Below are positions 613 to 27,114 of a DNA stretch of 64,000 bases, in pieces. Source of the stretch: Ascidiella aspersa (taxonomy: Eukaryota); the NCBI GenBank assembly GCA_963924565.1, contig OZ004614.1, positions 18,290,001 through 18,354,000 of the forward strand, read 5' to 3'. Positions within the stretch are counted from its first letter, which is position 1; each line of letters begins with the position of its first letter. The position numbers were made by a program, and so were the translations under genes. Below the pieces are notes generated by a model. That model had not been told where the DNA came from. It searched no databases and saw only the letters and a list, made by a program, of their open reading frames with translations.

Positions 613-645
613 ATTTCGGTTTGCTTGTCAGCTGAACCAAAAAAC

Positions 646-681
646 GGCTCTTTTCAGAGCCACCCATAACTTTGAAAGAGA
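646..681 (+). terminator. H2B histone 3' stem-loop and downstream element
   Basis: GGCTCTTTTCAGAGCC 646-661 followed by ACCCA and purine-rich GAAAGAGA. Confidence 0.95.
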
Positions 682-3428: not shown

Positions 3429-3556
3429 CCCCCTCCCCCCCCCGCCCATCCTTGTCGTTGATATATCCTTATTTATTGTTTGTGTAACTTAAATTTAGTA
3501 ACTGTAGCCTATAACTGTTGTTTTATTGTAATCATGCAACTACCGTAAAATGTAGA

Positions 3557-7488: not shown

Positions 7489-8063
7489 ACCAAGCTAGAT
7501 CACTCTCACCCCACACCCTCCACCCTAGTTCCCGCCCGACTCCCTTTCTGTCCATTATTGTTTTCATTTCTTAACTTCTAATCTACCAATACAGAGAAAC
7601 CAACGATTTCAGAGAGGTAAAAGTAACCATCGCCGCCATTTTGTTTTTAGAGACGCCATTTTGTTTTTCCGACGGCCATTTTGTTTTGTGATTAAGGCCC
7701 TTTTTAACTGAAATTGACAATTTCAAAGTGTGTCCCTACCCTCTGCAACCACAAAAGCATATCCTCGAAAGAGGGGAGCGAGAAATAAACCCAGAAATAT
7801 CTTTTTTCCTACTCGTTGTTGTTTTTCCTTTTCCTTTCGTGCCAACATGCATACTCCCCTTGTAGGAGGAGTAAAGGCCTCTTATTTGTTTTTATTTTAG
7901 TTTTGTCACTGCTTAACGGTTTACACATCCCCTGCAGTCATGACACCAGCGTGCTGCACCCAGTTTCCCCTGTTATTTTTCGCCATACTTTTCGCCGTCC
8001 GCTACCAAAATTACACACTGCTCGTTGTTCACATCCGAAACGAATATCAATAAATAACCAATA

Positions 8064-8139
8064 AGGGCAATGATGAGCCCAAACCAAAGGGGGGCCCTAG
8101 CAAATTGCTAGCCCCAAAAACCCTGAGGTCACTGAGCCC

Positions 8140-8140
<1 letters not shown>
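8064..8140 (+). ncRNA. Box C/D snoRNA-like (kink-turn) module at the 3' end of family A
   Basis: AGGGC-A-ATGATGA ... CTGA-GCCCT with internal hairpin CTAGC-AAATT-GCTAG; immediately precedes the poly(A). Confidence 0.7.
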
Positions 8141-8185
<45 letters not shown>

Positions 8186-8195
8186 AATCGTCAAA

Positions 8196-8798
8196 ATGTC
8201 AGGAGGCGCAGGAGATAGCAGCAAGCCGAAAGCCAAGAAGGCATCGCCGACCCAGGCGACTCATCCCACCTACCAGGTGATGGTCACCGCCGCCATTACA
8301 CAGCTTAAAGAAAGAAACGGCTCGTCCCGACAGAAGATTGTCAAGTACGTCAAGGACAACTACAAGGTCAGCGACAACTTCAACGTACCCTTAAAAACCT
8401 GCATCAGGCGCCTTATCAAAAGTGGGCAGCTCGTGCAGGTCAAGGGAACTGGTGCTTCGGGCTCTTTCAAGCTCGCCAAGACCGACAAGAAGCCGGTCAA
8501 AAAAGAGGCCAAAAAGAAGCCAGTTGCCGCCAAAAAGCCGGCAGCCAAGAAAGCCGTCGCGGCTAAAAAGCCAGCTTCCGCCTCGGCTAAGAAGACCACC
8601 GCCAAAAAGGCCGCCGCCGCCGCGAAAAAACCCGCCGCAAAGAAGTCGCCCAAAAAGCCGGCTGCCAAAAAAGCGCCGGCAAAGAAATCGACGACGGCCA
8701 AAAAGCCGTCGCCCAAAAAGGCGGTCAAGGCAAAGAAGCCAGCAGCAAAGAAGCAGGCCAAGAAGCCAGCTGCCAAAAAGGCTGCCACTAAAAAGTAA
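8196..8798 (+). CDS. H1: Linker histone H1 (200 aa)
   Basis: [26 protein letters not shown]...[13 protein letters not shown] globular domain; K/A/P-rich tail with SPKK motifs. Confidence 0.97.
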
Positions 8799-8857
8799 GC
8801 CCCCCCCAATGATGAGCCGCACGCCTCCCCAATACGGCCGTGGCAAACACAAAAAAC

Positions 8858-8897
8858 GGCTCTTTTCAGAGCCACCTTTTACTCACAAAAGAGATAT
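8858..8897 (+). terminator. H1 histone stem-loop and downstream element
   Basis: GGCTCTTTTCAGAGCC 8858-8873, then AAAAGAGA. Confidence 0.93.
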
Positions 8898-9049
8898 TTT
8901 GAAGCAAGCCGTCGACGCTTGCCTAGAGCATACCGTTAGATATAGGACTTGCGCTTTTGAGATAATTATCGCTACAAACAACAAACGAAAGAAATTTGCC
9001 TCCACTTAAGACGCGGGTCAATTTCAAAGCGTGCTTTTACGCTTGCCAC

Positions 9050-9479
<430 letters not shown>

Positions 9480-9506
9480 AATGTCCGAAACCTAAAAAAC
9501 ATCACC

Positions 9507-9545
9507 GGCCCTTTTCAGGGCCACCCAAAAATGCTAAAAGAGATA
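9507..9545 (+). terminator. H4 histone stem-loop and downstream element
   Basis: GGCCCTTTTCAGGGCC 9507-9522, then AAAAGAGA. Confidence 0.93.
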
Positions 9546-9566
9546 TTTTGTTAAATGCTAAAGCTA

Positions 9567-9585
9567 TGTGTGTGTGTGTGTGTGT
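9567..9585. repeat. (TG)n microsatellite
   Basis: About 9 TG units. Confidence 0.8.
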
Positions 9586-9719
9586 CTTGCTGCCCCAGTC
9601 GTTTAGTCCAGTACGGTTAGAAGGCATTTTGGCGAAAAAGAACGAGGCTCGAAAGGCCTGATAAGTCTCATGTCACATTATGCCGAAAGGCGCAAATCTC
9701 TCGGCCGGCGAGAAGAACG

Positions 9720-10261
<542 letters not shown>

Positions 10262-10294
10262 GTCCGTGCAAACGCCGAACATCAACAACACAAC

Positions 10295-10332
10295 GGCTCT
10301 TTTCAGAGCCACCTATTGTTTTGAAAAGAGAT
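10295..10332 (+). terminator. H3 histone stem-loop and downstream element
   Basis: GGCTCTTTTCAGAGCC 10295-10310, then GAAAAGAGA. Confidence 0.93.
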
Positions 10333-10693
10333 TTTAAACTCCGGTAAAGCGTTCGACTGCTAAGCGTAAGCCACCGACCCGACTCGCAACGGGTGGTATC
10401 ACGCGGACGCGTAGGGGGATCTACTAGGCCGTCTGGTCCGAAATGATGCCAGAGTGGCAGATTGGGGTTGCCTTTTGGCTTTTGGCGTTAACGGCCCTCG
10501 AAATACTTTATGCCCTGGCAAGTAAGCCAGCATCTCGGTTTGACACATGCGTCCTTTTAGCGAGTTTTTCGGTCGTCGCTCGAAGGTTTGTTATTTGCCA
10601 AGTAAAATCCTGCTCACTAACGAACTAGGGGGGTACATTTCAAGGTAGAGGCAGGTACTATAACTAGCAGTAAGTTTAAGCAAGCCAAATGGT

Positions 10694-10729
10694 TCTCTTT
10701 CAAACTGTAGGGTGGCTCTGAAAAGAGCC
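10694..10729 (-). terminator. H2A histone stem-loop and downstream element
   Basis: Reverse complement GGCTCTTTTCAGAGCC at 10714-10729, then GAAAGAGA. Confidence 0.93.
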
Positions 10730-10756
10730 GTTTTTTGGTGTGAAGCAGTTGTTGCT

Positions 10757-11143
<387 letters not shown>

Positions 11144-12230
11144 TTATGTTTGTTTATTCGCGTCACTAGGGGAAGCGAATAAAGGAGGAAAAGGACGAGA
11201 AAAACGGGCGAGGCGTACATTACACAACACGGAAAAAATAATAAAAAAAAGGAAAAGAAAGGTAATGGGTAATAACAATGAAAAGCGTTGGACAGAATGG
11301 GCGGCGGGGGTTAATAAATATTCGGAGGAAACAGTGCTAGGTCTCAACAGGGTATGTAGTGTGACGAGGTTACTAGGGAAAGGACAAGAAAAAGGCGCGA
11401 CATGACAATATATTGACCACTAGGAGAGCTAGGGGGCGTTGTGGTGGAAGACCAATAGATAGACAAAATTAACGAAGGCTTGCGTGGCGATGCTTACTAT
11501 AAAACGAGGAGGAGTAATATTGAAACAAGCAAACAAGAGATTAAATGGCGTAGGTAAATAAGTAAACAAGGAAAAGAAAAAAAATGGCGACGGATACTGA
11601 AAAGAATAAAAAGTACAATAAGTAGAAAAAAGAGTGTTGGTCAGCCAATGAGAGCTCAGAGTTTGTAGTGTCTAGGGTTCGGGGAGGGGGGTATGTCCCC
11701 TGGTTCTTCTCCCTGGATTGGCTATTAAGGAGAGCTTTTGCTAGTTCTCTCTCGTTGGTGGCAGTTTGGGTTTTTGCCTCGGACGAGAGCATTTTAGGGG
11801 TAATTCTGAATTTTATTGGGGCGCACAAAGGAGCTTGGTCTTTTGATGGTTGTTTTGCCTGTTATTTGGGCCTGTTCTGAAAAGAACTTGGCCTATTTTT
11901 GGGTTGGATATTTAGATTCTATTTTGCCTATTTTTTCACCTATCCCATTAGGACTGGGTGAAAGTGAGGAGGATTTTTGGTAAGGTGGTGCCGTGAAATT
12001 TAGTTGTTCTAGGTATTGGAGGGTTAATTTTTTGGAGGGCAGCTTTGCCTTGTTGGTTTTGGGTGGTCTAAGTGGGTTTTTTATTTGAAATTGTCGGGGT
12101 TTCTGTTTCCTTATTGTGCGGTTTAAAGTTTTATTGGGTGGGAAATTGGCGGGTTGAAATTGTCGTTTAAGTTTTAACTTTATTGGGGGTGGGGTGGCAA
12201 AGCTGCCGCAGGACGCAACTCACAACGTAC

Positions 12231-15200
12231 CTATTGGGATAGCAAATTCCTGAGGTCTTGTATTGTTGACATGAATGTTGTGTCTAGCCTATTATGTTCA
12301 ACGTTAAGTCGTTGTGTAATTCCTCTTTTTATTGCAGATATAATTGCTGAAACTGGCCGAATTGGTTTATGTTCAAACTTGATTTTATTTCTGGTTCTCC
12401 AGATGTGGTGCCGGGTGAGTGTATTGATGTATACTAGGTGCTCTGTGTATATTTCAAGGTGGCTGGGTATGTTGAGTCGTGTGGTAATCTCATCGGTGAG
12501 CGTGGTGGCAGTGTTGGTGAGTCGGTTGATTAGCTGTTCAATGTATTTCCACACTGGCGCCAGTGTGGAACATGTTGAAAAAATGTGGTGCGTGGTTTCT
12601 GGCCTACTTCCGCAGAAGAGGCACAAGGTAGCCGGGTCGAGAGATATGGAAGAGAATTTGGTGGATACGGGTAAGAGGTCAAATAAAGTTCTATAATTAA
12701 ACGTTTTTGCCGCGTTAGAGAGGATTGGGTGGTGGACGTTATTCCAGAGGGTTGTCGGAGCCATGGGACCATCCCTCTGGCTAACGTCGGGGTTGGGGGA
12801 GACTAGGCCTAGATAGAGGGTACGGATTGAGCCATGAACGAGTTGGTCGAAGGAGAAGGAATATTTTTTAACCAGGTTTAAGGCGTGTTTGTAGAAGGGG
12901 TTGGGGATAACGGCGTGGGGGTGTGAGTTTCTTAGTCGTAACTTAAAAAGGTTTGAAAGTTGGAGTCCAATATTATACTCGATCATGGCCAATCCGGGTG
13001 TAGTTGGGGTATCGTTTTCTCTATGGCGGCAATAGAAGAAGATAGACTGCATAAAGAAAAGATCGCAGTAGACGGGAATGTTTGCTACCTTGTATCCCCC
13101 CCTATCGAACGGAAGGGCCAGTTGTTGTATTGGAAGGTGCAATCTACTGTTCCCAGTTATAAAATTACCGACCGCGTCATCTACCCGTTGCCGCAACGAC
13201 TCGGGGAGTGGATAAACCGTGGCTGTATAGGATATTAATGGCAGGAATTTAGCCTTCGTGACGATGGATTTGGCGTTCCACGTCATTGCGAACCGGGCAT
13301 GGCGTTTTATTGTGTCTGTGAGGGTTTTAAAATGTTCGGCCCAGTTCGCCGTGACGCTCGGCCCAGACCCGATCACGGTCCCGAGTAAACTCAGGTGCGA
13401 TCGAGTCCATCCGATGGGGGGGAGGGGGCCCTGAGCGCTTCGGGTGTAGAGGCCTTTGGTCTTGGAGTAGTTCAGAGTTAAACCCGAAGCGTCTCTGAAA
13501 CGATCTAATTTTTGGAACGCCAATGTCACGGAGTATGGGTGGCAAAGGGTCAGGGTTGTGTCATCGGCATAACTGGGACACTTGATGCAGTGTCGACCAG
13601 GTATGCCGATGCCGCTGACCGACGAGTCGGCCTGAAGGGCCAGTGAGAAGGGCGTTGCGGCAATCAGGAAAAGGAACAAGCTAAGGGGATCGCCTTGTCT
13701 TATTCCCCTTCCAATTGCAAATGGCGCGGTCGGGAACCCGTTAACAAGAACAGTAGATTGTGCGTCTGTGTTTATGCTGCGTATTACTCTGATAAAGTGT
13801 TCAGGAAAACCCATTTTAGTCATAACACAATAAAGCCATGCGTGGTCGACCGAGTCGAAGGCCTTCTTGAAGTCTAGGGAGATAAAGTAAGCATCCGTAC
13901 CCCTCCCCAGCGCGTCATAGTAGAGATCCCTAAGGAGGGTGGTGGCATCCGATATACGCCGTTTTGGCGCTGCGAATTGGTGGGGGTGGAGGACTCGCTC
14001 CAGGATCGCTTTTATCCGAGTGGCCAGGATTTTGGTGTAAATTTTTAGGTCGGTGTTGAGCAGGGAGATAGGGCGATAGTTTCCTAGGTCCGAGGGATCT
14101 TGTTTTTTGTGTAAAAGGGTGAGTGTGCCGAGTTTCATGTCCTCGGGGATTTGGCCTTGTTCGTGGATTCGGTTCATGACGTCAGTCAGATCCCGACCAA
14201 TCAGCTCCCAGTACAGAGAATAAAACTCTGTGCTGATGCCGTCCGGACCGGGGGACTTTCCCGACGCCATTTGCCGAATTGCGTTATGTACTTCCTGGCC
14301 CGTGATTGGTCGGGTCAGGGTGTCGTCTAAGGGGTCTAAGCTAGTAGGGACGTGCGCTAGAAAACTCCGCTGCGCCTCGGCGTCTGTGGGTTGAGTGCGG
14401 TACAAGTCCGTGTAAAAGCTGTGGGCGATGTTAAGCATCTCTACGTTGTTACTGGTTTTGTTTTGGCTTGTGCCTTGTTTAAGCTCGAGTATGGTTGTGT
14501 TCCTACGCTGTTCGGCAAACCGAGCAAAGAATGCCTTTGTGCCCCGGTCTCCCCAGTCAAAACCTTGGGCTCGGGATTTAAGAAGTCTGGCGCGGGCAGA
14601 TTGCCGCTGAAGGGTGCAAAGTTGACGTTTAAGGGTTAGGTAGGGGGTAAGTAGGGTTGGGTTGTTTGCCAGCGACCCCCAGAGTGCCGTGACGCCTTCC
14701 TGCAGTTGCACATGGTGTTTGTTTCGCTCTACGGCTTGCAATTTGGAGTGCTTTATGTTAAGGTCTTTTATGCGTTGTTTTATGTGCAGCCACCAGGAGG
14801 TTTTATCATCGAAAAGGGCGGGGTGGAGCGTGCTCCACATTTCCCACCGCTTTTCGAGTTCCTCCCGGAAAGCTGCGTTGGCGTAGGTGCTAGTATTGTT
14901 TTTCCAGTACCCCTTACCCTTGCGGGATCCGGGGACCGTCTCGATTTGTAAGGTTACCATGTCGTGGTCCGACTGGCAATTGGGCGTCCCATTTTCCGAA
15001 ATTGGTTTTATGAGTGCGCTGATATAGAAACGATCTAAGCGGGACTGTGTGTTGTTAAGTCTACGTGTATAGAATGGCCTATCGCCGTACAACTGCCGAA
15101 AGGAGTCTGACAACTGGAGATCGCGGCAAACGTCAATGAGACCTGCCAGGAGCTCGGGATAAGTAGAGGGGGGTAAACGATCAAGGCGCGAGTTCTCCAC

Positions 15201-15653
15201 CCCGTTAAAATCGCCCGCCAAAATGGTTGGGTGCCTCGAATGCACGTGCACGTACAGCGACCCGAAGAAAGCTCTGCGAGCAGCACTTCCTTCGGTTCGC
15301 TGCGGGGCATACACGTTTACGACGTGTATTGTTGAGCCGAAAAGCTGTATATCGACTGCCAGGACCCGCCCGTCTCCGTCGCCACTACGCGCGCCGAAGC
15401 TGAGTGATGGATGCCTAAGCAATATCGCGACCCCGTTCCTCGCGAGAGGCCTCGACAAGGCCGACCAAAACAGGGCTTTATTGGGTTGCCATTCAACACC
15501 CCACGCCATTTCCTCCGCAGGAGAACTGTGCGTCTCCTGCAGAAGAATGACGTGTGCGTCGCTTCCAGAAAGGGAATGAAAAATGGCCGATCGTTTGGCC
15601 GCATCTTTCATTCCCCCGACGTTGAATGTGGTTACTTTAAGGTAAGTAGCCAT
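12231..15653 (-). CDS. Family B ORF2p (1140 aa): APE endonuclease, reverse transcriptase, C-terminal CCHC
   Basis: TFNVGG, LQETH, GDFN, SRLDRFY, SDH; SPGPDG, YRPISLLN, LDFKKAFDSV, GIRQGDPLS, YADD; CLFC..HIFSTC; uninterrupted. Confidence 0.97.
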   Translation of the reverse strand: MATYLKVTTFNVGGMKDAAKRSAIFHSLSGSDAHVILLQETHSSPAEEMAWGVEWQPNKALFWSALSRPLARNGVAILLRHPSLSFGARSGDGDGRVLAVDIQLFGSTIHVVNVYAPQRTEGSAARRAFFGSLYVHVHSRHPTILAGDFNGVENSRLDRLPPSTYPELLAGLIDVCRDLQLSDSFRQLYGDRPFYTRRLNNTQSRLDRFYISALIKPISENGTPNCQSDHDMVTLQIETVPGSRKGKGYWKNNTSTYANAAFREELEKRWEMWSTLHPALFDDKTSWWLHIKQRIKDLNIKHSKLQAVERNKHHVQLQEGVTALWGSLANNPTLLTPYLTLKRQLCTLQRQSARARLLKSRAQGFDWGDRGTKAFFARFAEQRRNTTILELKQGTSQNKTSNNVEMLNIAHSFYTDLYRTQPTDAEAQRSFLAHVPTSLDPLDDTLTRPITGQEVHNAIRQMASGKSPGPDGISTEFYSLYWELIGRDLTDVMNRIHEQGQIPEDMKLGTLTLLHKKQDPSDLGNYRPISLLNTDLKIYTKILATRIKAILERVLHPHQFAAPKRRISDATTLLRDLYYDALGRGTDAYFISLDFKKAFDSVDHAWLYCVMTKMGFPEHFIRVIRSINTDAQSTVLVNGFPTAPFAIGRGIRQGDPLSLFLFLIAATPFSLALQADSSVSGIGIPGRHCIKCPSYADDTTLTLCHPYSVTLAFQKLDRFRDASGLTLNYSKTKGLYTRSAQGPLPPIGWTRSHLSLLGTVIGSGPSVTANWAEHFKTLTDTIKRHARFAMTWNAKSIVTKAKFLPLISYTATVYPLPESLRQRVDDAVGNFITGNSRLHLPIQQLALPFDRGGYKVANIPVYCDLFFMQSIFFYCRHRENDTPTTPGLAMIEYNIGLQLSNLFKLRLRNSHPHAVIPNPFYKHALNLVKKYSFSFDQLVHGSIRTLYLGLVSPNPDVSQRDGPMAPTTLWNNVHHPILSNAAKTFNYRTLFDLLPVSTKFSSISLDPATLCLFCGSRPETTHHIFSTCSTLAPVWKYIEQLINRLTNTATTLTDEITTRLNIPSHLEIYTEHLVYINTLTRHHIWRTRNKIKFEHKPIRPVSAIISAIKRGITQRLNVEHNRLDTTFMSTIQDLRNLLSQ

Positions 15654-15710
15654 GACTACTATTTAGTTTAGGTTCAGCTATCTATCCTAGGTACATCCTA
15701 AGTTGCGTCC

Positions 15711-17081
15711 TTATGCCATGCTTTGCGAAAGCGGCGTGGCCTTCTTCTCGCATTGGGGGCAGACGCTTATGTCTCCCGTGTTTGAAAAAAAATGGCAGCT
15801 GCCGACGCAGCTTTGTAGCCACTGGGGGCAGCCGGTACACTTAGTGGCTTTGCCCGCTAGAGGGACTTGGACGGCCACGCCGCAATCGCAGGTTTCGGTT
15901 AGAGTTTCTAGGCGCTGTGCCTTATGGTTATTTGTACTCTCGTCCGAGCCTGAATAAAACCGCTTAACTGCATCTTTTATGTTGTCGTCGTCCTGGTGCT
16001 GTTCCCCTCCTGTTGAGTCCGTTTCCGATGTGAAAGTGGTTGTAGGTTCGCTTGAGCTGAATTCCGTGGTGACCGATGTGCCCGCGTTCACCGCTAAGGC
16101 GTCGTTTTCAGTGGTGCCCGCGTTCACCGCTAAGGCGCTGTTTTCAGTGGTGCCCGCGTTCACCGCTAAGGCGCTGTTGCTTGCTGTGCCCGCGTTCACC
16201 GCTAAGGCGTTGTTGTCATTGGACCCCTGTTCACCAGGGGCCGCTTTTCCTTTCCCGCCTTCCTCGCTCTCGCTCGGTGGTTGGTCGGTTGGCGGGGGGG
16301 AGGTCCTCTCAGGCGCCTGTTGATGGGAAGGCGGCGGAGGAGGAGGAGGAGGAGGAGTAGGAGGAGGAGGAGGGATGTTGGGGAGAGGAAGGCCTGGCTT
16401 GGGCCATTGTTTCCCGTTTCGTCTGTTGACGGTGGTGTAGCCATCCGTGTTGGATGGCCCTGGTTTGGGGGTTGACGTATGATCCGGCGTTGTCAGCTCC
16501 TGTGATTTCAGGACCTGGCAGTCGTCTTTGTAGTGGCCGAACTTTCGGCATATAAAGCATTGGGGGGGTTGGCCCGTGTACTTTGTCGGGAAGGCCAGCC
16601 CCTCGACCCGGATCGTTTGCGGGATGGGGCTTCTTTTGAGGTCCGCAGTTCTCATTGTATAAGTGGTGCGGCCGTCGTTTAGATGGTTGCGGTCCTTTTG
16701 TCGCTTGTAATCTTTAACTTCTCCGTGCCGGAAATTCAATAGTGAGACTATTTCCTGGATCGGAAATCTTGGCGGGACGTGCGAGACTTCCACCGTAGTG
16801 AACTCGCTTTCATACCGCTTGACGGACTGGACCGCTGATTGGCCGGTTAGGCGGATTACCAGGTCATCGGCGGCTTTTTCGTCGACGCAGGTGAAGTCGG
16901 TGAAGCCTCCTCTGCGTTCGACGATGCCTTCCAGGCGGTTGTAATTGAAATGCACCTTCTTGAGTAGTTCGTATATGAAGTTGCGGGATCTTTTGTCCGG
17001 CAGCTTTGCCACAACTTCTGTTTTTCTTTCAAAGATGGTTCGACTTCTGGCGACAACTTTGTTCCAGCCTGGCTGGGCCAT
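15711..17081 (-). CDS. Family B ORF1p (456 aa)
   Basis: CFICRKFGHYKDDC knuckle, poly-Pro stretch, C-terminal multi-Cys domain (CDC..CTGC..CVGSC..CPQC). Confidence 0.9.
   Translation of the reverse strand: MAQPGWNKVVARSRTIFERKTEVVAKLPDKRSRNFIYELLKKVHFNYNRLEGIVERRGGFTDFTCVDEKAADDLVIRLTGQSAVQSVKRYESEFTTVEVSHVPPRFPIQEIVSLLNFRHGEVKDYKRQKDRNHLNDGRTTYTMRTADLKRSPIPQTIRVEGLAFPTKYTGQPPQCFICRKFGHYKDDCQVLKSQELTTPDHTSTPKPGPSNTDGYTTVNRRNGKQWPKPGLPLPNIPPPPPTPPPPPPPPPSHQQAPERTSPPPTDQPPSESEEGGKGKAAPGEQGSNDNNALAVNAGTASNSALAVNAGTTENSALAVNAGTTENDALAVNAGTSVTTEFSSSEPTTTFTSETDSTGGEQHQDDDNIKDAVKRFYSGSDESTNNHKAQRLETLTETCDCGVAVQVPLAGKATKCTGCPQWLQSCVGSCHFFSNTGDISVCPQCEKKATPLSQSMA
16078..16213. repeat. 36-bp coding tandem repeat (x4) in family B ORF1
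   Basis: Core GTGCCCGCGTTCACCGCTAAGGCG repeated; encodes NxALAVNAGT units. Confidence 0.85.
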
Positions 17082-17655
17082 TGCGGGCTGGGTTGAGGAG
17101 GTGTGCAGTGGGGTGACTGCAGGTTAATGGGGAGGGTATTGGTGGCGTCTTATTGGACGGTTGTCCTCAACGCTTAGGTCGGGTAGTTCTAGCGGGCCTT
17201 GAAAAAGGCCAGGAAAAGGTTTTTCCTTTTGCGCTTGGTAGGATCTGAGGGTTGGGGTTTTTTGGGTTGGCCCACTTACCGTTCCGGCGGCAAAACTCTT
17301 GAAAAACCGAGTAATGCGTTTTTTTCCGGCAACGGGGTGGGACGGGTTGCTGGTACTAAGCCTGTTCAGGGAAATCCCTACGCTCCAAACCTTCGGGGCT
17401 AGGCAGGAGCTTATTCTCTTTTCTTCCTGAATCAGGTAAGTCTGGCAGGATATTGCGCAGATCTTGCTGTCGTGGACGGTTTGTCGGGTCCTTACGGAGC
17501 TCGAAACAACAACCGTTCTGAGTCTGGTCTGAATGACTGACTGCTGACAGCTCTTCGGATATTGTGAAGGATAGAGTTCTTCACTTTGTAATAACTTGAA
17601 ACTGGCTTGCTTGGCTTTGCTTAAAATAGCTTGGCTTTGCTCTGTACACTTGTAC

Positions 17656-17905
17656 TTGTTTCTCGAGTGAAATCGAAAGAATGAAGGCGGGCGGTTTGAA
17701 ACGCCTTTTATAATCCCCACGCCTGTCGAAAAACCGCCCGACGGTTGAAAAGCGCGCGCAGTAACACCCAATCGTTTTTTCCGCGCACTCTCGCACTGCT
17801 CCATTGGCGAAAGCGTCGAGCCGTCATTTGCATCTCTTCCGATCTATAAGCGACGAGAGTGGAAAAACACGCCACACTCTTCGTCGTCGAAAGCTACGAA
17901 GAACC
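17656..17905. promoter_or_regulatory. Second copy of the H2A/H2B divergent promoter, now flanked by retroelements on both sides
   Basis: Essentially identical to 1-242 from position 17664; octamer 17826-17833. Confidence 0.9.
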
Positions 17906-19282
17906 GATTTCACTCGAGAAACGAGAAACTCGAACATACAAGTGTATGACCCAAATATGTTGTCCAAGCCATGGAGCATGGTTGTTTCCCAGGGGAATCC
18001 CCACACCGCCGCAGGGAATCCTTCCCTCGTCGCAGCGCCCCGCAGGAGGGAGGTCTTCTCCCGTCGTACGGAGGTCGTTGCTAAAATTCCAAGCAAGAGG
18101 TCAAGGAACTTCATCTACAGCCTCCTAAAACTGGTGTCGTTCGACACCAACAATCTGGAGGGGATAGTCGAACGAAAAGGAGGCTACACCGACTTCACGT
18201 GCAAAACTGAACAGCAAGCCGAAGAGTTGGTCTTCAAGCTGAAGAGCAGACCCGAGGTCGAGCTCGCAAGGCGCTATGAGAGCGAATATACCAGCGTGGA
18301 AATATCGCACGTGCCACCTCGCTTCGACATCGGTACGCTTATGGCGTACATCCAGAAGAATCACGGCACTGTCCTAGAGGCCAGAAAACTAAAGGACGCC
18401 ATAGCCGGTCTCCCAGACGGGAGAATAAAAGCAGAGGTGCTCACCGAGCACCTGAAACGAAAACCCATCCCGGCAACCATCCGATGCGAAGGACTCACGT
18501 TTCCAGTGAGGTACTACCAGCAACCACAGCAGTGCTTCCACTGCAGAGCCTTCGGCCACATCCGGGCAAATTGCCCGACACGCCAGCCCCCATCGCAGCG
18601 CCCAGCAGACGAGGAACCCGACCCAGCGACAAACTCAGAGAAGACCCCGGAGAACACGCCAACAGACATCTCGTCGGAGAGCGGTGAGAAGACAGAGGCG
18701 GCAACATCATCCAGCATAACGGCGGCCACAGCAGTAACAGCAACAGCAGCATCCGGCAACTCAGCGGCAAACGATGTCCAACAGCCAGAAGAAGACTGCA
18801 CCACCAAACGACAAAGAAGCAGCGGCAACACCCCTCCCGATCACGACCAAAAGCGTCCAAAAGCAGAAGATGACAGGCTTTGCCTGCCGCAGCCCGAGGG
18901 GCCTCCTGTGGACGGGCCAGTGCGCAAATGCCGTGAATGCCTCGAGTGCGACTGCCAAGCACTCGTGGATTTTCCAGAGCCGGGCACACCGACTGTATGC
19001 GACGCCTGCAAAAGGATCTTCCGCTGGTGCGACGAATGTAATTATGCATACGTGTGGCTTCCCAAAAGCCAGAAGTCTTGCCCCACGTGCGGGACTTTCA
19101 TACCTGAAAGCCTCTCACAAACCCTCCCGGGTTGACAGAGGCGGTCTGGAAGCAGGGAACCTGCATAATCATTGTTTGTTTTCAAAGTTATATTTGCATA
19201 TTTGTTTTTCGCCTCGCCCGTTTTATTTCGTTCTTTTTCTTTCTTATTCGTTTTCTGTAATTGATGCGAATAAACCAACATA
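17906..19282 (+). mobile_element. Family C copy 1: ORF1-only non-autonomous element in the H2B 5'UTR
   Basis: Splits GAAGAACC|CTCCTGTCAAAATG; ORF1 homologous to family B ORF1; 3' end similar to the family B 3' end; no ORF2 and no poly(A). Confidence 0.85.
17957..19135 (+). CDS. Family C ORF1p (392 aa), copy 1
   Basis: RRTEVVAKIPSKRSRNFIY aligns to family B RKTEVVAKLPDKRSRNFIY; CFHCRAFGHIRANC knuckle; Cys-rich C-terminus. Confidence 0.85.
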   Translation: MLSKPWSMVVSQGNPHTAAGNPSLVAAPRRREVFSRRTEVVAKIPSKRSRNFIYSLLKLVSFDTNNLEGIVERKGGYTDFTCKTEQQAEELVFKLKSRPEVELARRYESEYTSVEISHVPPRFDIGTLMAYIQKNHGTVLEARKLKDAIAGLPDGRIKAEVLTEHLKRKPIPATIRCEGLTFPVRYYQQPQQCFHCRAFGHIRANCPTRQPPSQRPADEEPDPATNSEKTPENTPTDISSESGEKTEAATSSSITAATAVTATAASGNSAANDVQQPEEDCTTKRQRSSGNTPPDHDQKRPKAEDDRLCLPQPEGPPVDGPVRKCRECLECDCQALVDFPEPGTPTVCDACKRIFRWCDECNYAYVWLPKSQKSCPTCGTFIPESLSQTLPG

Positions 19283-19293
19283 CTCCTGTCAAA

Positions 19294-20814
19294 ATGGCTG
19301 CAAGCAAAGGCACCAAAAAGGCTGTCAATGAAGCGGACCCTCCTCTCCTCGAAGACCGTCCTGAAACTGTCAGCTCTTTCCTCCAACCCCCTGCAACCCA
19401 GCCAGCTGAAGTTTTGGCCACTGATGTGCCCTCAACGTCGCAAGCTCGTCCGAAGATGCTTGCAAACGTCGACCAAGACATCATTGATGCCTTGATGTTC
19501 GACCAATCCTCAGACGTGACTGCACGTTTTGTTCCAGCCCTCAGTCGGGCTATGATCTCGCTGCTGATGCACGAGGTCTACCCGACTATGAGGGACTGGA
19601 TCGACCACCTTGAAGCGATTGTACAAAAGCCGAACGGCTATGTTACTTTCACTTGCACGAAAAGAGAATCTGCTGCCGCCCTGACAGCACTACTACGGGC
19701 GAGGCCCGAATGCAGTTTTGCCGAGCTATTTGATGAAGATCAAATAAAGGCAAAACTGTCATATGTACCTCCGCGAATGCGAAACGACGCCATCAAGAGA
19801 TGGTTTACTCTCAAATATGCCGAGTGCACAAGAGTCAGAATCCTTCGGGATAACGATAAATGTGCCAATGGCAAGAGAGAACTGACGCTGAAAAGCTCAG
19901 AAATCGAGAATAATCCTATCCCGAAGTTCATAAAACTCGGGAAGGCCAAGGTAGCAGTTTACTACCAAGGTCAGCCGGACTTTTGCAATTATTGCAAAGA
20001 GATGGGCCACGACTTACCCTCGTGCCCAAAACTGGCAAAAAAAAAAGAGAAAAAAAGAGAATACGCCAAACAAAAGCATCTCGTCAGAGCAGAGCCACCG
20101 CCTCTGAACGACGAAAATTTTCCTCCTATGGAGGTACTACCAGGAGGCTCTCCACTGCTCGCTGGGATCCCCCCCAGTGCCACTAGCACACCGAACGTGG
20201 TCAGAATATCGCCGAGCAAGAGCGAAAAACGAAGAAAAAGGAAAGAACGAAGAAAAAAAAAGAAGAGACAACAAAGAGAGAAGCGAAAAGAAAAGAAGAA
20301 GGCAAAGAAAAGAAATGATACAACAACGGAGTCATCCTCTTCATCTACCCCCCTCCCAATCAACGATGCCGATCCCGGTATCGAAATGCATTCCTCTCTC
20401 GAGGCCGAGCTCGAGGAAAATGCTTTCATGGCGTTCCATGCCTATGAGAAACCCCTCAATGCCATTCCCATTGGAATTGATCCCGGTTCCGAGAACTCCT
20501 CCCATATATTCTCTTCGAGCGACCCATCGCCACAAGGGAAGAGAAATCGATCTTCAACCACAGAAGGGAGCTCAAAAACACCCGCCCACAAGCCGAAGCG
20601 TCGATTGGTCGACTATACCATAGACGAGATCTCGGCAATCAAGGCCCAAACAGTGACCGGTGGTAACTACACCGGGTACTTTTGCCGAGCATGCCGCAAT
20701 TATTTCAACCCTCTCATGAAGGAGCAGTCAACTCAATGTGGCTGTCCTCTCACATCGAAACAACTCTACAGCGAGCTGCAATGCGAGCTATACGCTCATG
20801 AGTCTACTTTTTAA
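19294..20814 (+). CDS. H2B N-terminus (11 aa) in frame with family D ORF1p (506 aa total; internal Met at 19456)
   Basis: [11 protein letters not shown] then ORF1 similar to family A (KLSYVP, NGKRELTL, CNYCKEMGHDLPSC), with a long K/R tract. Confidence 0.8.
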   Translation: MAASKGTKKAVNEADPPLLEDRPETVSSFLQPPATQPAEVLATDVPSTSQARPKMLANVDQDIIDALMFDQSSDVTARFVPALSRAMISLLMHEVYPTMRDWIDHLEAIVQKPNGYVTFTCTKRESAAALTALLRARPECSFAELFDEDQIKAKLSYVPPRMRNDAIKRWFTLKYAECTRVRILRDNDKCANGKRELTLKSSEIENNPIPKFIKLGKAKVAVYYQGQPDFCNYCKEMGHDLPSCPKLAKKKEKKREYAKQKHLVRAEPPPLNDENFPPMEVLPGGSPLLAGIPPSATSTPNVVRISPSKSEKRRKRKERRKKKKRQQREKRKEKKKAKKRNDTTTESSSSSTPLPINDADPGIEMHSSLEAELEENAFMAFHAYEKPLNAIPIGIDPGSENSSHIFSSSDPSPQGKRNRSSTTEGSSKTPAHKPKRRLVDYTIDEISAIKAQTVTGGNYTGYFCRACRNYFNPLMKEQSTQCGCPLTSKQLYSELQCELYAHESTF

Positions 20815-21126
20815 AAGCCCTCCCTACTTCTCAGATGTTCGAAGATGCCACCTCCAGGTTCTTCAGTTTATGTGAAGACATCTTCGTTCATCCCTTTGGA
20901 TTCCTTTTTTTTCATTGTAAGTATACTTTGCATTGTTTGTTTATGTTTTTGTCTTTCGACAAGAACTCAACAACTTTGTATATATTCCCTTTATTCACTG
21001 TATATTTAACTTGTATTATTTGTTTCGTTTTTTTTCCTCGCAAAACTTTAATAAAACAACGGGCAATGATGCTCCCCTCCCCGGGTGGTGCAGCTGTCAC
21101 CAACACAAACCCGAGGCCCTGAGCCC

Positions 21127-21159
<33 letters not shown>
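19329..21159 (+). mobile_element. Family D copy 1: ORF1-only poly(A) element starting at H2B codon 12
   Basis: Begins after AAAAAGGCTGTCAA; ORF1, short 3'UTR, AATAAA, C/D-like module, poly(A) 21130-21159. Confidence 0.85.
21060..21127 (+). ncRNA. Box C/D-like module, family D copy 1
   Basis: CGGGC-A-ATGATGC ... CTGA-GCCCG; compensatory C-G pair replaces the A-T pair of family A. Confidence 0.65.
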
Positions 21160-21161
<2 letters not shown>

Positions 21162-22515
21162 AACTCGAACATACAAGTGTATGACCCAAATATGTTGTCC
21201 AAGCCATGGAGCATGGTTGTTTCCCAGGGGAATCCCCACACCGCCGCAGGGAATCCTTCCCTCGTCGCAGCGCCCTGCAGGAGGGAGGTCTTCTCCCGTC
21301 GTACGGAGGTCGTTGCTAAAATTCCTAGCAAGAGGTCAAGGAACTTCATCTACAGCCTCCTAAAACTGGTGTCGTTCGACACCAACAATCTGGAGGGGAT
21401 AGTCGAACGAAAAGGAGGCTACACCGACTTCACGTGCAAAACTGAACAGCAAGCCGAAGAGTTGGTCTTCAAGCTGAAGAGCAGACCCGAGGTCGATCTC
21501 GCAAGGCGCTATGAGAGCGAATATACCAGCGTGGAAATATCGCACGTGCCACCTCGCTTCGACATCGGTACGCTTATGGCGTACATCCAGAAGAATCACG
21601 GCACTGCCCTAGAGGCCAGAAAACTAAAGGACGCCATAGCCGGTCTCCCAGACGGGAGAATAAAAGCAGAGGTGCTCACCGAGCACCTGAAACGAAAACC
21701 CATCCCGGCAACCATCCGTTGCGAAGGACTCACGTTTCCAGTGAGGTACTACCAGCAACCACAGCAGTGCTTCCACTGCAGAGCCTTCGGCCACATCCGG
21801 GCAAATTGCCCGACACGCCAGCCCCCATCGCAGCGCACAGCAGACGAGGAACCCGACCCAGCGACAATCTCAGAGAAGACCCCGGAGAACACGCCAACAG
21901 ACATCTCGTCGGAGAGCGGTGAGAAGACAGAGGCGGCAACATCATCCAGCATAACGGCGGCCACAGCAGTAACAGCAACAGCAGCATCCGGCAACTCAGC
22001 GGCAAACGATATCCAACAGCCAGAAGAAGACTGCACCACCAAACGACAAAGAAGCAGCGGCAACACCCCTCCCGAGAACGACCAAAAGCGTCCAAAAGCA
22101 GAAGATGACAGGCTATGCCTGCCGCAGTCCGAGGGGCCTTCTGTGGACGGGCCAGTGCGTAAATGCCGTGAATGCCTCGAGTGCGACTGCCAAGCACTCG
22201 TGGATTTTCCAGAGCCGGGCACACCGACTGTATGTGACGCCTGCAAAAGGATCTTCCGCTGGTGCGACGAATGCAATTATGCATACGTGTGGCTTCCCAA
22301 AAGCCAGAAGTCTTGCCCCACGTGCGGGACTTTCATACCGGAAAGCCTCTCACAAACCCTCCCGGGTTGACAGAGGCGGTCTGGAAGCAGGGAACCTGCA
22401 TAATCATTGTTTGTTTTTCAAAGTTTTATTTGCATATTTGTTTTTCGCCTCGCCCGTTTTATTTCGTTCTTTTTTCTTATTCGTTTTCTGTAATTGATGC
22501 GAATAAACCAACATA
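21160..22515 (+). mobile_element. Family C copy 2 (intact ORF1 21192-22370)
   Basis: Near-identical to copy 1; followed by CTCCTGTCAAAATGGCTGC. Confidence 0.85.
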
Positions 22516-22561
22516 CTCCTGTCAAAATGGCTGCAAGCAAAGGCACCAAAAAGGCTGTCAA

Positions 22562-24419
22562 TGAAGCAGACCCTCCTCTCCTCGAAGACCGTCCTGCAAC
22601 TGTCAGCTCTTTCCTCCAACCCCCTGCAACCCAGCCAGCTGAAGTTTTGGCCACTGATGTGCCCTCAACGTCGCAAGCTCGTCCGAAGATGCTTGCAAAC
22701 GTCGACCAAGACATCATTGATGCCTTGATGTTCGACCAATCCTCAGACGTGACTGCACGTTTTGTTCCAGCCCTCAGTCGGGCTATGATCTCGCTGCTGA
22801 TGCACGAGGTCTACCCGACTATGAGGGACTGGATCGACCACCTTGAAGCGATTGTACAAAAGCCGAACGGCTATGTTACTTTCACTTGCACGAAAAGAGA
22901 ATCTGCTGCCGCTCTGACAGCACTACTACGGGCGAGGCCCGAATGCAGTTTTGCCGAGCTATTTGATGAAGATCAAATAAAGGCAAAACTGTCATATGTA
23001 CCTCCGCGAATGCGAAACGACGCCATCAAGAGATGGTTTACTCTCAAATATGCCGAGTGCACAAGAGTCAGAATCCTTCGGGATACTGATAAATGTGCCA
23101 ATGGCAAGAGGGAACTGACGCTGAAAAGCTCAGAAATAGAGAATAATCCGATCCCGAAGTTTATAAAACTTGGGAAGGCCAAGGTAGCAGTTTTCTACCA
23201 AGGCCAGCCGGACTTTTGCAATTATTGCAAAGAGATGGGTCACGAAATACCCTCGTGCCCAAAACTGGCAAAAAAAAAGAGAAAAAAAGAGAATACGCCA
23301 AACAAAAGCATCTCGTCAGAGCAGAGCCACCGCCTCTGAACGACGAAAATTTTCCTCCTATGGAGGTACTACCAGGAGGCTCTCCACTGCTCGCTGGGAT
23401 CCCCCCCAGTGCCACTAGCACACCGAACGTGGTCAGAATATCGCCCAGCAAGAGCGAAAAACGAAGAAAAAGGAAAGAACGAAGAAAAGAAAAGAAGAGA
23501 CAACAAAGAGAGAAGCGAAAAGAAAAGAAGAAGGCAAAGAAAAGAAATGATACAACAACGGAGACATCCACTTCATCTACCCCCCTCCCAAACAACGACG
23601 CCGATCCCGGTGTCGAAATCAATTCCTCTCTCGAGGCCGAGCTCGAGGAAAATGCTTTCATGGCGTTCCATGCCTATGAGACACCCCTCAATGCCATTCC
23701 CATTGGAATTGATCCCGGTTCCGCGAGCGGTAATTCCTCCCATATATTCTCTTCGAGCGACCCATCGCCACAAGGGAAGAGAAATAGAGCTTCGACCTCA
23801 GAAGGGAGCTCAAAAACACCCGCCCACAAGCCGAAGCGTCGATTGGTCGATTATACCATAGACGAGATCTCGGCAATCAAGGCCCAAACAGTGACCGGTG
23901 GTAACTACACCGGGTACTTTTGCCGAGCATGCCGCAATTATTTCAACCCTCTCATGAAGGAGCAGTCAACTCAATGTGGCTGTCCTCTAACATCGAAACA
24001 GCTCTACAGCGAGCTGCAATGCGAGCTATACGCGCATGAGTCTACTTTTTAGAAGCCCTCCCTACTTCTCAGATGTTCGAAGATGCCACCTCCAGGTTCT
24101 TCAGTTTATGTGAAGACATCTTCGTTCATCCCTTTGGATTCCTTTTTTTTTTCATTGTAAGTATACTTTGCATTGTTTGTTTATGTTTTTGTCTTTCGAC
24201 AAGAACTCAACAACTTTGTATATATTCCCTTTATTCACTGTATATTTAACTTGTATTATTTGTTTCGTTTTTTTTTCTCGCAAAACTTTAATAAAACAAC
24301 GGGCAATGATGCTCCCCTCCCCGGGTGGTGCAGCTGTCACCAACACAAACCCGAGGCCCTGAGCCCGGTAAAAAAAAAAAAAAAAAAAAAAACAAAAAAA
24401 AAAAAAAAAAAAAAAAAAA
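22562..24419 (+). mobile_element. Family D copy 2 (H2B ATG at 22527; frameshift in A-run ~23280; C/D module 24300-24367)
   Basis: Near-identical to copy 1; ORF split into 22494-23339 and 23216-24052. Confidence 0.85.
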
Positions 24420-25780
24420 CAAGAAACTCGAACATACAAGTGTATGACCCAAATATGTTGTCCAAGCCATGGAGCATGGTTGTTTCCCAGGGGAATCCCC
24501 ACACCGCCGCAGGGAATCCTTCCCTCGTCGCAGCGCCCTGCAGGAGGGAGGTCTTCTCCCGTCGTACGGAGGTCGTTGCTAAAATTCCTAGCAAGAGGTC
24601 AAGGAATTTCATCTACAGCCTCCTAAAACTGGTGTCTTTCGACACCAACAATCTGGAGGGGATAGTCGAACGAAAAGGAGGCTACACCGACTTTACTTGC
24701 AAAACTGAGCAGCAAGCTGAAGAGTTGGTCTTCAAGCTGAAGAGCAGACCCGAGGTCGATCTCGCAAGGCGCTATGAGAGCGAATATACCAGCGTGGAAA
24801 TCTCCCACGTGCCACCTCGCTTCAACATCGGTACGCTTATGGCGTACATCCAGAAGAACCACGGCACTGTCCTAGAGGCCAGAAAGCTAAAGGACGCCAT
24901 AGCCGGTCTCCCAGACGGGAGAATAAAAGCAGAGGTGCTCACCGAGCACCTGAAACGAAAACCCATCCCGGCAACCATCCGATGCGAAGGACTCACGTTT
25001 CCAGTGAGATACTACCAGCAACCACAGCAGTGCTTTCACTGCAGAGCCTTCGGCCACATCCGGGCAAATTGCCCGACACGCCAGCCCCCATCGCAGCGCA
25101 CAGCAGACGAGGAACCCGACCCAGCGACAATCTCAGAGAAGACCCCGGAGAACACGCCAACAGACATCTCGTCGGAGAGCAGTGAGAAGACAGAGGCGGC
25201 AACATCATCCAGCATAACGGCGGCCACAGCAGTAACAGCAACAGCAGCATCCGGCAACTCAGCGGCAAACGATATCCAACAGCCAGAAGACGACTGCACC
25301 ACCAAACGACAAAGAAGCAGCGGCAACACCCCTCCCGAAAACGACCAAAAGCGTCCAAAAGCAGAAGATGACAGGCTATGCCTGCCGCAGTCCGAGGGGC
25401 CTTCTGTGGACGGGCCAGTGCGTAAATGCCGTGAATGCCTCGAGTGCGACTGCCAAGCACTCGTGGATTTTCCAGAGCCGGGCACACCGACTGTATGTGA
25501 CGCCTGCAAAAGGATCTTCCGCTGGTGCGAGGAATGCAATTATGCATACGTGTGGCTTCCCAAAAGCCAGAAGTCTTGCCCCACGTGCGGGACTTTCATA
25601 CCGGAAAGCCTCTCACAAACCCTCCCGGGTTGACAGAGGCGATCTGGAAGCAGGGAACCTGCATAATCATTGTTTGTTTTCAAAGTTTTAGTTGCATATT
25701 TGTTTTTCGCCTCGCCCGTTTTATTTCGTTCTTTTTCTTTCTTATTCGTTTTCTGTAATTGATGCGAATAAACCAACATA
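24420..25780 (+). mobile_element. Family C copy 3 (intact ORF1 24455-25633)
   Basis: Same 392-aa ORF; ends AACCAACATA|CTCC. Confidence 0.85.
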
Positions 25781-25784
25781 CTCC

Positions 25785-27114
25785 GATTTCACTCGAGAAA
25801 CAAGACACTAGAACATACAAGTGTATGACCCAAATATGATGTCCAAGCCATGGAACATGGCCGTTTCCCAGGGGAATCCCCACACCGCCGCAGGGAATCC
25901 TTCCCTCGTCGCAGCGCCCCGCAGGAGGGAGAGGTCTTCTCCCGTCGTACGGAGGTCGTTGCTAAAATTCCTAGCAAGAGAACAAGGAACTACATCTACA
26001 GCCTCCTATAAAACTGGTGTCTTTCGACACCAACAACCTGGAGGGGATAGTCGAAAGAAAAGAAGGCTACACAGACTTTACGTGCAAAACTGAACAGCAA
26101 GCTGAAGAGTTGGTCTTCAAGCTGAAGAGCAGACCCGAGGTCGATCTCGCAAGGCGCTATGAGAGCGAATACACCAGCGTGGAAATCTCGCACGTGCCAC
26201 CTCGCTTCAACATCGGTACGCTTATGGCGTACATCCAGAAGAACCACACGGCACTGCTCTAGAGGCCAGAAAGCTAAAGGGCGCCATAGCCGGTCTCCCA
26301 GACGGGAGAATAAAAACAGAGGTGCTCACCGAGCACCTGAAACGAAATCCCATCCCGGCAACCATCCGATGCGAAAGACTCACATTTCCAGTGAGGTACT
26401 ACCAACAACCACAGCAGTGCTTCCACTGCAGAGCCTTCGGCCACATCCGGGCAAATTGCCCCCATCGCAGCGCACATCAGACGAGGAACCCGACCCAACG
26501 GCAAACCTCGTAAACAACATCGCCAAACGCAACAGCAACAACAGCAACAACAATCTCCGGCAACTCAGCGGCAACCTACATCCAACAGCCAGAAGACCAC
26601 TGCACCACCAAACGAACAAGAAGCAGCGGCAACACCCCTCCCGAGAACGACCAAAAGCTACCAAAGGCCGGGATGACAGGCTATACCTGCCACCGTACGA
26701 AAAGCCTTCTTTCCACAACGAAGGGTGCGATTACCTCATCTGCACCTGCACCGGTGTGGTGGAATAATATCCAGAGGCGGACGCACCGACCGTATGCGGT
26801 GAATGTTTGAAGCTCTACCGCATGTGCAATGGATGCAATGAAGCACACGAGTGGCACCTCGAGAGCCAGAAGCTTTTCCCCAAGTGCAAGACCCCCATAA
26901 TAGGCTTCCTCTCGCAAACCCTTCCAGGTTAACAGGGGTGGCCTAGAGTGGGAATCCCGCAGAAAGTCAAATGCGCTATTTTTTGCCTAATTTGCATAAT
27001 TTCGTTAATTTCAATTATTTTTTTATATTCACATTTGTTTTCGTTTCGCCCGTTTTATTTCGTTCTTTTTCTCCCTTATTCGTTTTCTTTAATTGATGCG
27101 AATAAACCAACATA
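25785..27114 (+). mobile_element. Family C copy 4, frameshifted, with variant C-terminus
   Basis: Starts GATTTCACTCGAG; fragmented ORF1; ends AACCAACATA before an H2B start remnant. Confidence 0.8.

Follow-up and report, generated by a model that had tools for sequence, protein, structure and literature searches.

The window analysed here, a stretch of 64,000 nucleotides from Ascidiella aspersa, contains histone genes that are interrupted by LINE elements (Table 1). The autonomous element B lies in H2A, and beyond the divergent H2A/H2B promoter two short elements, C1 and D1, follow one another in H2B. This promoter is 98.8% identical to window positions 1-242 upstream of an intact H2B. The ends of C1 are given by reads of empty H2B genes, which connect 17904 directly to 19283, and its head is matched both by pristine H2A in locus L067 and by the 5' junction of B. 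An AATAAA motif is found in the C tail, 7 nt ahead of the element end. The H2B remnant between C1 and D1 is identical to window positions 242-287, and reads run on into normal H2B at 19328. Behind D1 the same C-remnant-D unit is found again, with 1339/1357 nt identical between C1 and C2 and 1764/1800 between D1 and D2. The sizes proposed in an initial annotation, about 1.38 kb for C and 1.83 kb for D, agree with those measured.

Table 1. Features of the histone locus and of the C and D copies in the window.
Feature	Position	Strand	Details
Autonomous element B in H2A 5'UTR	11145-17654	-	intact ORF1 (456 aa) and ORF2 (1140 aa)
Divergent H2A/H2B promoter, common to both	17650-17904	.	H2B TATA 17844; inferred H2B start near 17876
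Element C1, ORF1-only	17905-19282	+	1378 nt; 11 nt upstream of H2B ATG; poly(A) absent at junction
C head	17905-17922	+	18 nt identical to histone H2A 5'UTR
C ORF1	17957-19135	+	intact, 392 aa
C 3' tail, B-like	19210-19282	+	79% over 72 nt to B
H2B remnant between C1 and D1	19283-19328	+	5'UTR end, ATG (19294), 11 codons + 2 nt
H2B-D fused reading frame	19294-20814	+	506 aa; starts at H2B ATG (19294)
Element D1, ORF1-only	19329-21159	+	interrupts H2B codon 12; 1831 nt including poly(A)
D terminal module, box C/D-like	21061-21129	+	closest to family K
Second C-H2B remnant-D unit	21160-24419	+	joined to D1 poly(A) within A-rich head of C
Tandem of two C copies, the third young one and an older one with a frameshift	24420-27114	+	
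Older C subfamily copy, in second H2B gene	33527-34782	+	
Most diverged C subfamily copy, still ORF1-only	46977-48313	+	core dS 0.91, dN 0.07 vs C1

C and D had been described as lacking ORF2, and this was upheld: a tblastn search of 17900-21170 with the ORF2 of B, K and A gave a best match of E 0.028 over 29 columns, and Pfam found neither reverse transcriptase (RT) nor endonuclease domains in C or D, while B ORF2 shows RVT_1 and Exo_endo_phos. The latter protein contains an APE endonuclease, an RT and a C-terminal zinc motif. Its nearest solved relative is human L1 ORF2p (E 3e-52); among the 120 hits listed, the nearest named relatives are ascidian and there are no named Tx1 sequences. For C ORF1, Pfam reports a weak zinc knuckle alone, and the predicted layout comprises two RRM folds, a CCHC knuckle, a low-complexity linker and a Cys-rich tail (mean pLDDT 81; tandem-RRM matches at E about 5e-8). 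Mammalian-type L1 ORF1 proteins have a coiled-coil/RRM/CTD organization. With two RRM folds and a CCHC knuckle in its model, C ORF1 is not of this type in the strict sense.

As first proposed, C resembles B in both ORF1 and 3' end, and D ORF1 is A-like: core identities are 54.5% (C to B), 29.5% (C to A), 44.7% (D to A) and 23.4% (D to B). In the ORF1 tree, (B,(C,X)) stands apart from (D,A,K,E), with support of 97/95 for B+C+X, 96/96 for C+X and 100/99 for D with A, K and E. Family X is a third ORF1-only family, and no partner tail was found for it, since 6/6 pattern matches were X copies. The separate clades support the earlier suggestion that the ORF1-only LINE families C and D arose independently of each other. 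B is likely the helper of C. A word-based search returned no homologues of C ORF1 or of the D ORF1 core at E 1e-8, which, given its limited lengths, is no sign of uniqueness; a profile search found 942 relatives. No convincing histone head was seen on the N-termini of the best 55 of these 942 or of 150 pattern-screened relatives, so that histone fusion in other species is not borne out by these sequences.

The 3' module of D was at first considered closest to that of J (window 46125). The two do have ATGATGCTCCCC in common; genome-wide, however, the module is nearer to an intact family, K, located shortly upstream of the window, with 79% over 73 nt as compared with 28 nt for J. GGGCAATGATG and CTGAGCCC, the putative boxes C and D, are unchanged in 7/7 aligned ends. 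An Rfam search of the module gave no match, and its folding was no better than that of shuffles (z 0.30).

Copies of C and D are also found elsewhere in the genome, so that the ORF1-only form is not confined to this array, a possibility the initial annotation had left open. Target duplications flank three dispersed copies, measuring 16 nt for C on C2 and 15 nt each for C on C7 and D on C4; here C1-C9 after 'on' label genomic locations and are distinct from window copies C1 and C2. Insertion is site-specific and in repeated sequence. The 3' flanks open with CTC in 12/13 C ends; 6/6 B ends have ATCGC-like letters there, as does the single C copy with an H2A head. This count leaves out 3/22 tail matches (L133-135) that are unassignable. 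D combines a K-like tail with the site of E. The copies at loci L024 and L026 are related to window copies by segmental duplication.

ORF1 had been described as intact in young copies. This is true of all three young C copies in the window and of one of the two D copies, the second having a 1-nt deletion in an A-run. ORF1 was also thought to be under selection, and the dN/dS comparisons bear this out. For the C ORF1 core, dN/dS is at most 0.26 in 46/50 pairs (of 55 possible; the pairs are not independent), and between C1 and the copy at window 46977 it is 0.08, with 65.5 synonymous and 28.5 non-synonymous changes. The C linker has a dN/dS near 1. Values for D are 0.24 between D1 and D2 (CI 0.12-0.45), 0.15 between D1 and the dispersed copy on C4 (CI 0.09-0.22; core 0.12) and 0.24 between D1 and L049. 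These ratios support purifying selection on ORF1 among ORF1-only copies of both families. The dN/dS of 0.24 between D1 and D2 also speaks against the C-D unit having simply been duplicated as DNA.

The 5' ends of dispersed copies are those of histone mRNAs, starting about 30 nt downstream of a TATA box; the TATA-to-head distance is 32 nt for H2B and 30 for H2A. Heads at the inferred H2B start are carried by D on C4, C on C3 and C7, and E on C6, and those at the inferred H2A start by C on C2 and C1 and B on C4. X has heads from the inferred start of H4, and K on C9 one from that of H3. From this arrangement, C and D are likely transcribed from histone promoters. The one RNA run aligned (about 6 in 100 read; 92 reads aligned) gave zero depth over most of the C ORF and across all of D past the H2B remnant. 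X has no start codon of its own and its first internal Met is near residue 135; 8/9 X heads are fused in frame to H4 or H2B, in 5 junction types. The three junctions of the autonomous E found in the window reach a stop within 2 codons. D has an internal ATG at 19438, where A and K also start, and may therefore do without the H2B ATG.

Taken together, these observations suggest that C and D are transcribed from histone promoters, that their RNA is coated by their own ORF1 protein, and that RT and endonuclease are borrowed from complete relatives; we place the probability of this reading at roughly 75%. Transcription would start at the histone promoter and continue into the element. Elements landing behind a histone ATG would either fuse with it in frame (D, X) or halt the histone frame at once (E), and ORF1 would be selected since it acts on its own RNA. 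A common 3' tail may recruit the helper ORF2, that of B for C and, judging from sequence, that of a K/E-type element for D. For B and C, whose class lacks poly(A), the transcript would read a few bases into downstream histone sequence and these bases would help to choose the site, a rule which rests on three dispersed C copies, most flanks being those of array copies. Through such read-through bases C could have moved from the H2A site of B to H2B and then stayed there, and the tandem in the window could have arisen from C-H2B-D read-through transcripts. Recruitment by the tail leaves the K-like tail of D at the site of E unexplained.

A different view, raised for C in the initial annotation, is that the ORF1 protein steers the element, the diverged ORF1 of C directing the ORF2 of B to H2B rather than H2A. 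The CTC-type (H2B-like) sites of C, seen at 0/6 B ends, would fit this, and D at the site of E implies that something besides the tail sets its site. However, C opens with H2A 5'UTR, and the dispersed copies L020 and L150 begin at the inferred H2A transcription start. L020 has an intact 3' end at an H2A-like target, where both it and a B end meet a Gypsy-like element at one and the same position, yet its ORF1 core is 96% identical to H2B copies. The data do not support the claim for C, and steering by ORF1 is unlikely. The histone heads could also be template-switch chimeras, made by reverse transcription onto abundant histone mRNA, rather than signs of promoter use. R2 is known to switch templates by jumping to other RNAs (PMC3414825), and in the stretches examined no H4 or H2B gene that is otherwise intact contains an X copy. 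The heads, however, agree base for base with where each family inserts within the array: for D this is H2B codon 12, in the window as well as on C4, for B it is H2A and for E H2B. They are also found repeatedly among the copies and, in X, are mostly in frame, which makes such an origin decidedly unlikely.

Promoter use and borrowed ORF2 must further be weighed against autonomous parents, in which the selection signal would have been earned and of which C and D would be by-products. No near-identical full-length parent was found in the assembly, the best non-family matches being 60% (C) and 47% (D) among 150 scored candidates each. The histone array is nevertheless collapsed about 30-fold (about 210 H2B promoters by read depth vs 6 uninterrupted H2A 5' ends; the pattern counting array heads took H2A/B-type heads only and missed C heads), and a parent of C or D could therefore hide there. 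At locus L048 a D-like ORF1 (84%) and a K-like ORF2 (86%) are joined, and their synonymous divergences match (0.475 and 0.470, respectively); by its sequence this locus may be a decayed autonomous parent of D. Its tail rows are not homologous and were left out. The L048 linker was also considered as the stop region of D and was dropped when 292/500 shuffles scored equally well. C read depth is higher in the 5' half (9.5 copies) than in the stop/3'UTR bin (5.7), an excess for which a diverged-tail subfamily may or may not fully account. Against hidden parents, all 8/8 full-length C copies examined measure 1245-1397 nt from head to tail and every C subfamily to dS 0.9 has the short architecture, so that identical deletions would have to be repeated. 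D depth is flat (ORF about 4.0 copies, 3'UTR 3.8), and no loose read end occurs at either stop codon among the read ends listed. Moreover, a deletion at locus L081 fuses C ORF1 to an unrelated ORF2, and L048 can be such a fusion. Hidden parents are thus quite improbable. Retention by the host, as domesticated RNA-binding proteins or dominant-negative restrictors of complete elements, would agree with strong purifying selection and a position behind strong promoters. It is very improbable, given that the copies are multiple, mobile and decaying after insertion (frameshifts in at least 5 of 11 C copies), that there is no fixed single locus, and that no RNA was seen in the one small run.

Transcription from histone promoters with borrowed ORF2 can be extended to a guild of C, D and X, of two origins. 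Its members would be long-lived parasites that exploit the promoters and start codons of the histone array, make histone-ORF1 fusion proteins and hop between histone genes with host mRNA as both head and read-through guide, ORF1 being selected in cis and ORF2 borrowed; the C/X branch has possibly been ORF2-free since 40% protein divergence. We regard this wider picture as evenly balanced between acceptance and doubt. No paper on such histone-targeting or ORF1-only LINEs, nor on histone genes as a LINE niche with Pol II promoter and in-frame start codon capture, was found in the largely open-access literature searched. An intact candidate helper adjacent to fixed insertion sites makes the cis need for ORF1 and the source of specificity assayable, and retargeting of an RNA-guided kind, from one site to a related second one, would be relevant to tools built on site-specific retroelements.

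Among known systems, C and D are HAL1-like, with trans use of a helper ORF2 inferred. HAL1 (half-L1) of mammals is a non-autonomous ORF1-only LINE derivative with several independent origins, as cited in PMC5753468 and PMC4859970. In C and D, too, ORF1 is the sole coding sequence, the element has moved as a unit, as dispersed copies and target duplications attest, and ORF1 and 3' end tie it to an autonomous LINE (C to B, D to K). Unlike HAL1, they belong to an invertebrate L1/Tx1-like lineage with an RRM-RRM-CCHC ORF1, and C, D and X are site-specific in histone genes and likely have no promoter of their own; in D and X the histone ATG is captured in frame. ORF1 retention in half-L1 elements is hard to test in old mammalian copies, whereas young and old ORF1-only copies here give a direct selection signal, measured among the ORF1-only copies themselves.

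The Tx1-clade elements Tx1L, Keno (U2), Kibi, Koshi and Tx1-Mar are APE-RT elements at fixed sites of repeated sequences (PMC4494074). Target-specific LINEs of this clade can be inserted in tandem, on either side of a duplicated target, and may rely on flanking transcription; their targets are snRNA genes, microsatellites and transposons, and the word histone does not occur in that paper (PMC4494074). The histone LINEs instead target the 5' ends of protein-coding histone genes, and three of their families are ORF1-only. R2 SIDEs and R2/R1 hybrid SIDEs of Drosophila rDNA are internally deleted, non-autonomous and site-specific; they share a transcript with a multicopy host gene and are mobilized by the complete element, and SIDEs are non-coding and freed by a ribozyme (PMC3414825). 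In contrast, ORF1 is maintained under selection in C, D and X, their copies still carry the host 5' end, and Rfam found no ribozyme in the window. Finally, R1Bm is described as requiring downstream target sequence for accurate reverse transcription, and both R1Bm and SART1Bm prime on target-like RNA 3' ends (PMC7265360). An R1Bm-type model is proposed for the poly(A)-less B and C from few flanks, whereas for R1Bm it was shown by assay in insects.

Elements C and D, the ORF1-only LINE derivatives in H2B (Table), were searched for ORF2 sequence and neither contained any. Their ORF1 cores resemble those of other LINE families here, C sharing 54.5% identity with B and D 44.7% with A. At the 3' end, C carries a tail resembling that of B (79% over 72 nt), whereas D finishes with a box C/D-like module. 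The initial annotation had described both elements in these terms and had taken J as the closest match to the D module; the description held, except that the tail of the autonomous family K is closer to that of D. Structure prediction modeled the C core as two RRM folds plus a zinc knuckle. In an ORF1 tree of 24 rows with midpoint root, C grouped with a third ORF1-only family, X (96/96), C and X grouped with B (97/95), and D grouped with A, K, and E (100/99). The proposal of two independent families thus stands as far as separate ORF1 clades are concerned (C/X/B vs. D/A/K/E), while the independence of D from a parent is clouded by locus L048, discussed below. Box C/D-like modules lie between an AATAAA-like signal and poly(A) in families A, D, E, J, and K, with 57 pattern matches genome-wide. 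One speculative role for the module is to form a kink-turn that Snu13 binds, which could direct the RNA to Cajal bodies or histone locus bodies.

The window (G000:C8:18290001-18354000 of a 308.6 Mb genome) holds a histone quintet with a stem-loop at every gene (five Rfam matches), and downstream of it a tangle of LINEs inserted close to the start codons of histone genes. Among named proteins, those most similar to the B reverse transcriptase come from ascidians (65% to one of Phallusia), which makes a sea squirt the probable host. Judging by read depth in a DNA run labelled with the same species, a haploid genome would have ~210 copies of the H2B promoter, ~9 of C, and ~4 of D, so the assembly has collapsed the histone array. 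Near the start of all five histone genes there is a gene-specific LINE site: H1 is occupied by A, H2A by B, H2B by C, D, and E, and the H4 promoter and H3 by K. A CAAAATG or AAAAATG start context follows the H1, H2A, and H2B sites.

Coordinates of the features (L numbers are loci in the genome; entries without a prefix are window positions)
Feature	Location	Remarks
Histone quintet	H2B 253, H1 8196, H4 9168, H3 9851, H2A 11134 (minus strand)	
Gene-specific LINE sites	1-17650; L066-L070	
Array paralogue	G000:C8:18444000-18500000 (L080-L085)	~150 kb off; much of the window's elements, different deletions
Element C	17905-19282	11 nt before the H2B ATG; reads of genes without it jump exactly 1378 nt
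Element D	poly(A) end at 21159	starts 35 nt past H2B ATG
Box C/D-like modules	8065, 21061, 24301, 32075, 40475, 46125, 52516	
J 3' region	45710-46011	73-nt repeat, about four copies
X loci	L051, L052, L053, L054, L055, L056, L057, L058, L082:1500-2500	
X, decayed copy	53300-53990	
K, intact copy	L070:2225-7860	intact ORF1, 1140-aa ORF2; in H4 promoter
K, other loci	L059, L060, L061, L137, L138	several near contig ends; one copy with H3 5'UTR head
D-like ORF1/K-like ORF2 junction	L048:4970-6510	decayed
Autonomous elements behind histone ATG	27138, 32163, 48351; L049:7941	open with in-frame stops, leaving short upstream ORF
Shared C and B 3' end position	L020:1-1500; L080:3900-4480	near start of Gypsy-like gag region

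C and D are families and not local accidents. The ORF1-only form occurs outside this array, with C on contigs C1, C2, C3, C5, and C7 as well as elsewhere on C8, and D as a near-full copy on contig C4 and decayed copies on C8. Full-length C copies measured 1245-1397 nt (8/8 examined), and target duplications of 15-16 nt surround C on contigs C2 and C7 and D on contig C4. Six-frame genome searches, with 150 candidates scored for each element, found no autonomous element with near-identical ORF1; outside its own family, C had no match above 60% and D none above 47%. The 46-47% matches to D are K, while those at 55-60% to C are X, a sister to C that has its own hairpin-poly(A) tail, no start codon of its own, and a first Met not before ~residue 135. 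No autonomous partner for X was found by tail pattern. In L048, a D-like ORF1 (84% ungapped) is joined to a K-like ORF2 (86%), both with dS ~0.47. This locus could be what remains of a parent of D, or it could have arisen by a deletion that joined two elements lying in tandem; L081 is such a deletion fusion, involving C.

That ORF1 stays under selection had been proposed, and the dN/dS values agree. For the C core (codons 25-212), dN/dS (Nei-Gojobori) was ≤0.26 in 46 of 50 listed pairs, with dS reaching 0.94; the other four, which lay above 0.26, were close pairs with few changes. The low-complexity linker of C was near 1, and its Cys tail 0.08-0.16 in young copies. D gave 0.24 between the window copies D1 and D2, 0.15 for the contig C4 copy, and 0.24 for L049. 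For X the range was 0.05-0.54, and dS was saturated in comparisons of one of its two branches with the other. The pairs are not independent. Because every copy compared is ORF1-only, selection came after the loss of ORF2, barring hidden parents.

Histone 5'UTR, starting 30-37 nt behind the TATA box, forms the head of dispersed D, C, X, B, E, and K copies, and these heads lie inside the target duplication wherever one is visible. This suggests that histone promoters drive transcription of the elements. Counting against it, zero reads covered the D body or most of the C ORF in a single RNA run sampled at about 6 in 100; 88 of 92 mapped reads continued into normal H2B. Starting at the H2B ATG, the frame of D is uninterrupted by stops, and the contig C4 copy is likewise open until its first break, although D keeps an internal ATG. 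X carried histone sequence at 9 of 11 examined 5' ends, eight of them in frame with H4 or H2B, through five junction types. The autonomous E, at nearly the H2B site of D, meets a stop within two codons (3/3 window junctions caught). The D and X junctions and the early stops of E suggest a constraint on the histone reading frame, met either by in-frame fusion or by an immediate stop. Also on the negative side, no convincing histone heads were found in relatives from other genomes (the best 55 N-termini and 150 screened by pattern, of 942).

After the poly(A) of D comes the C head instead of H2B, at two slightly different points; in a decayed D on contig C8, the H2B duplication comes next, as expected. 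The C-D tandem could have formed by insertion of C-H2B-D read-through RNAs or by template jumps. Duplication at the DNA level fits less well, given that D1 and D2 have diverged under selection.

It had also been suggested that ORF1 steers C to H2B. The bases after the tail were CTC (H2B-like) for 12 of 13 C and ATCGC-like (H2A-like) for 6 of 6 B, leaving out 3 of 22 matches that could not be assigned. The exception, the contig C2 copy, speaks against steering by ORF1: with a 96% identical ORF1 core, it begins at the inferred H2A start and lies at an ACCGC site. The H2B-headed C on contig C7 lies at a pre-existing CTCC. In this small sample, the insertion site would therefore seem to track the source gene rather than ORF1. 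A second H2A-headed C is on contig C1, and the first 18 nt of C are H2A 5'UTR, the same as the 5' junction of B. B and C have no poly(A) and their AATAAA lies 7 nt before the end, so their RNA would carry downstream histone bases able to pair with the nicked target. D combines a K-like tail with the site of E, which recruitment of a helper through a shared tail would not explain. The C/Gypsy-like junction (Table) recurs in a contig of run X4, labelled as another organism.

Pairing of downstream target bases in the RNA with the target is described for R1Bm (PMC7265360); for B and C it is proposed. Other known systems are site-specific Tx1 elements and flank-dependent transcription (PMC4494074), non-coding SIDEs of R2 (PMC3414825), and ORF1-only LINEs called HAL1 (PMC5753468, PMC4859970). 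In the literature searched, whose coverage was incomplete, no description was found of ORF1-only LINEs that target histone genes or are fused to them. C and D are real, would work like HAL1, and are a differing form of HAL1-like element.
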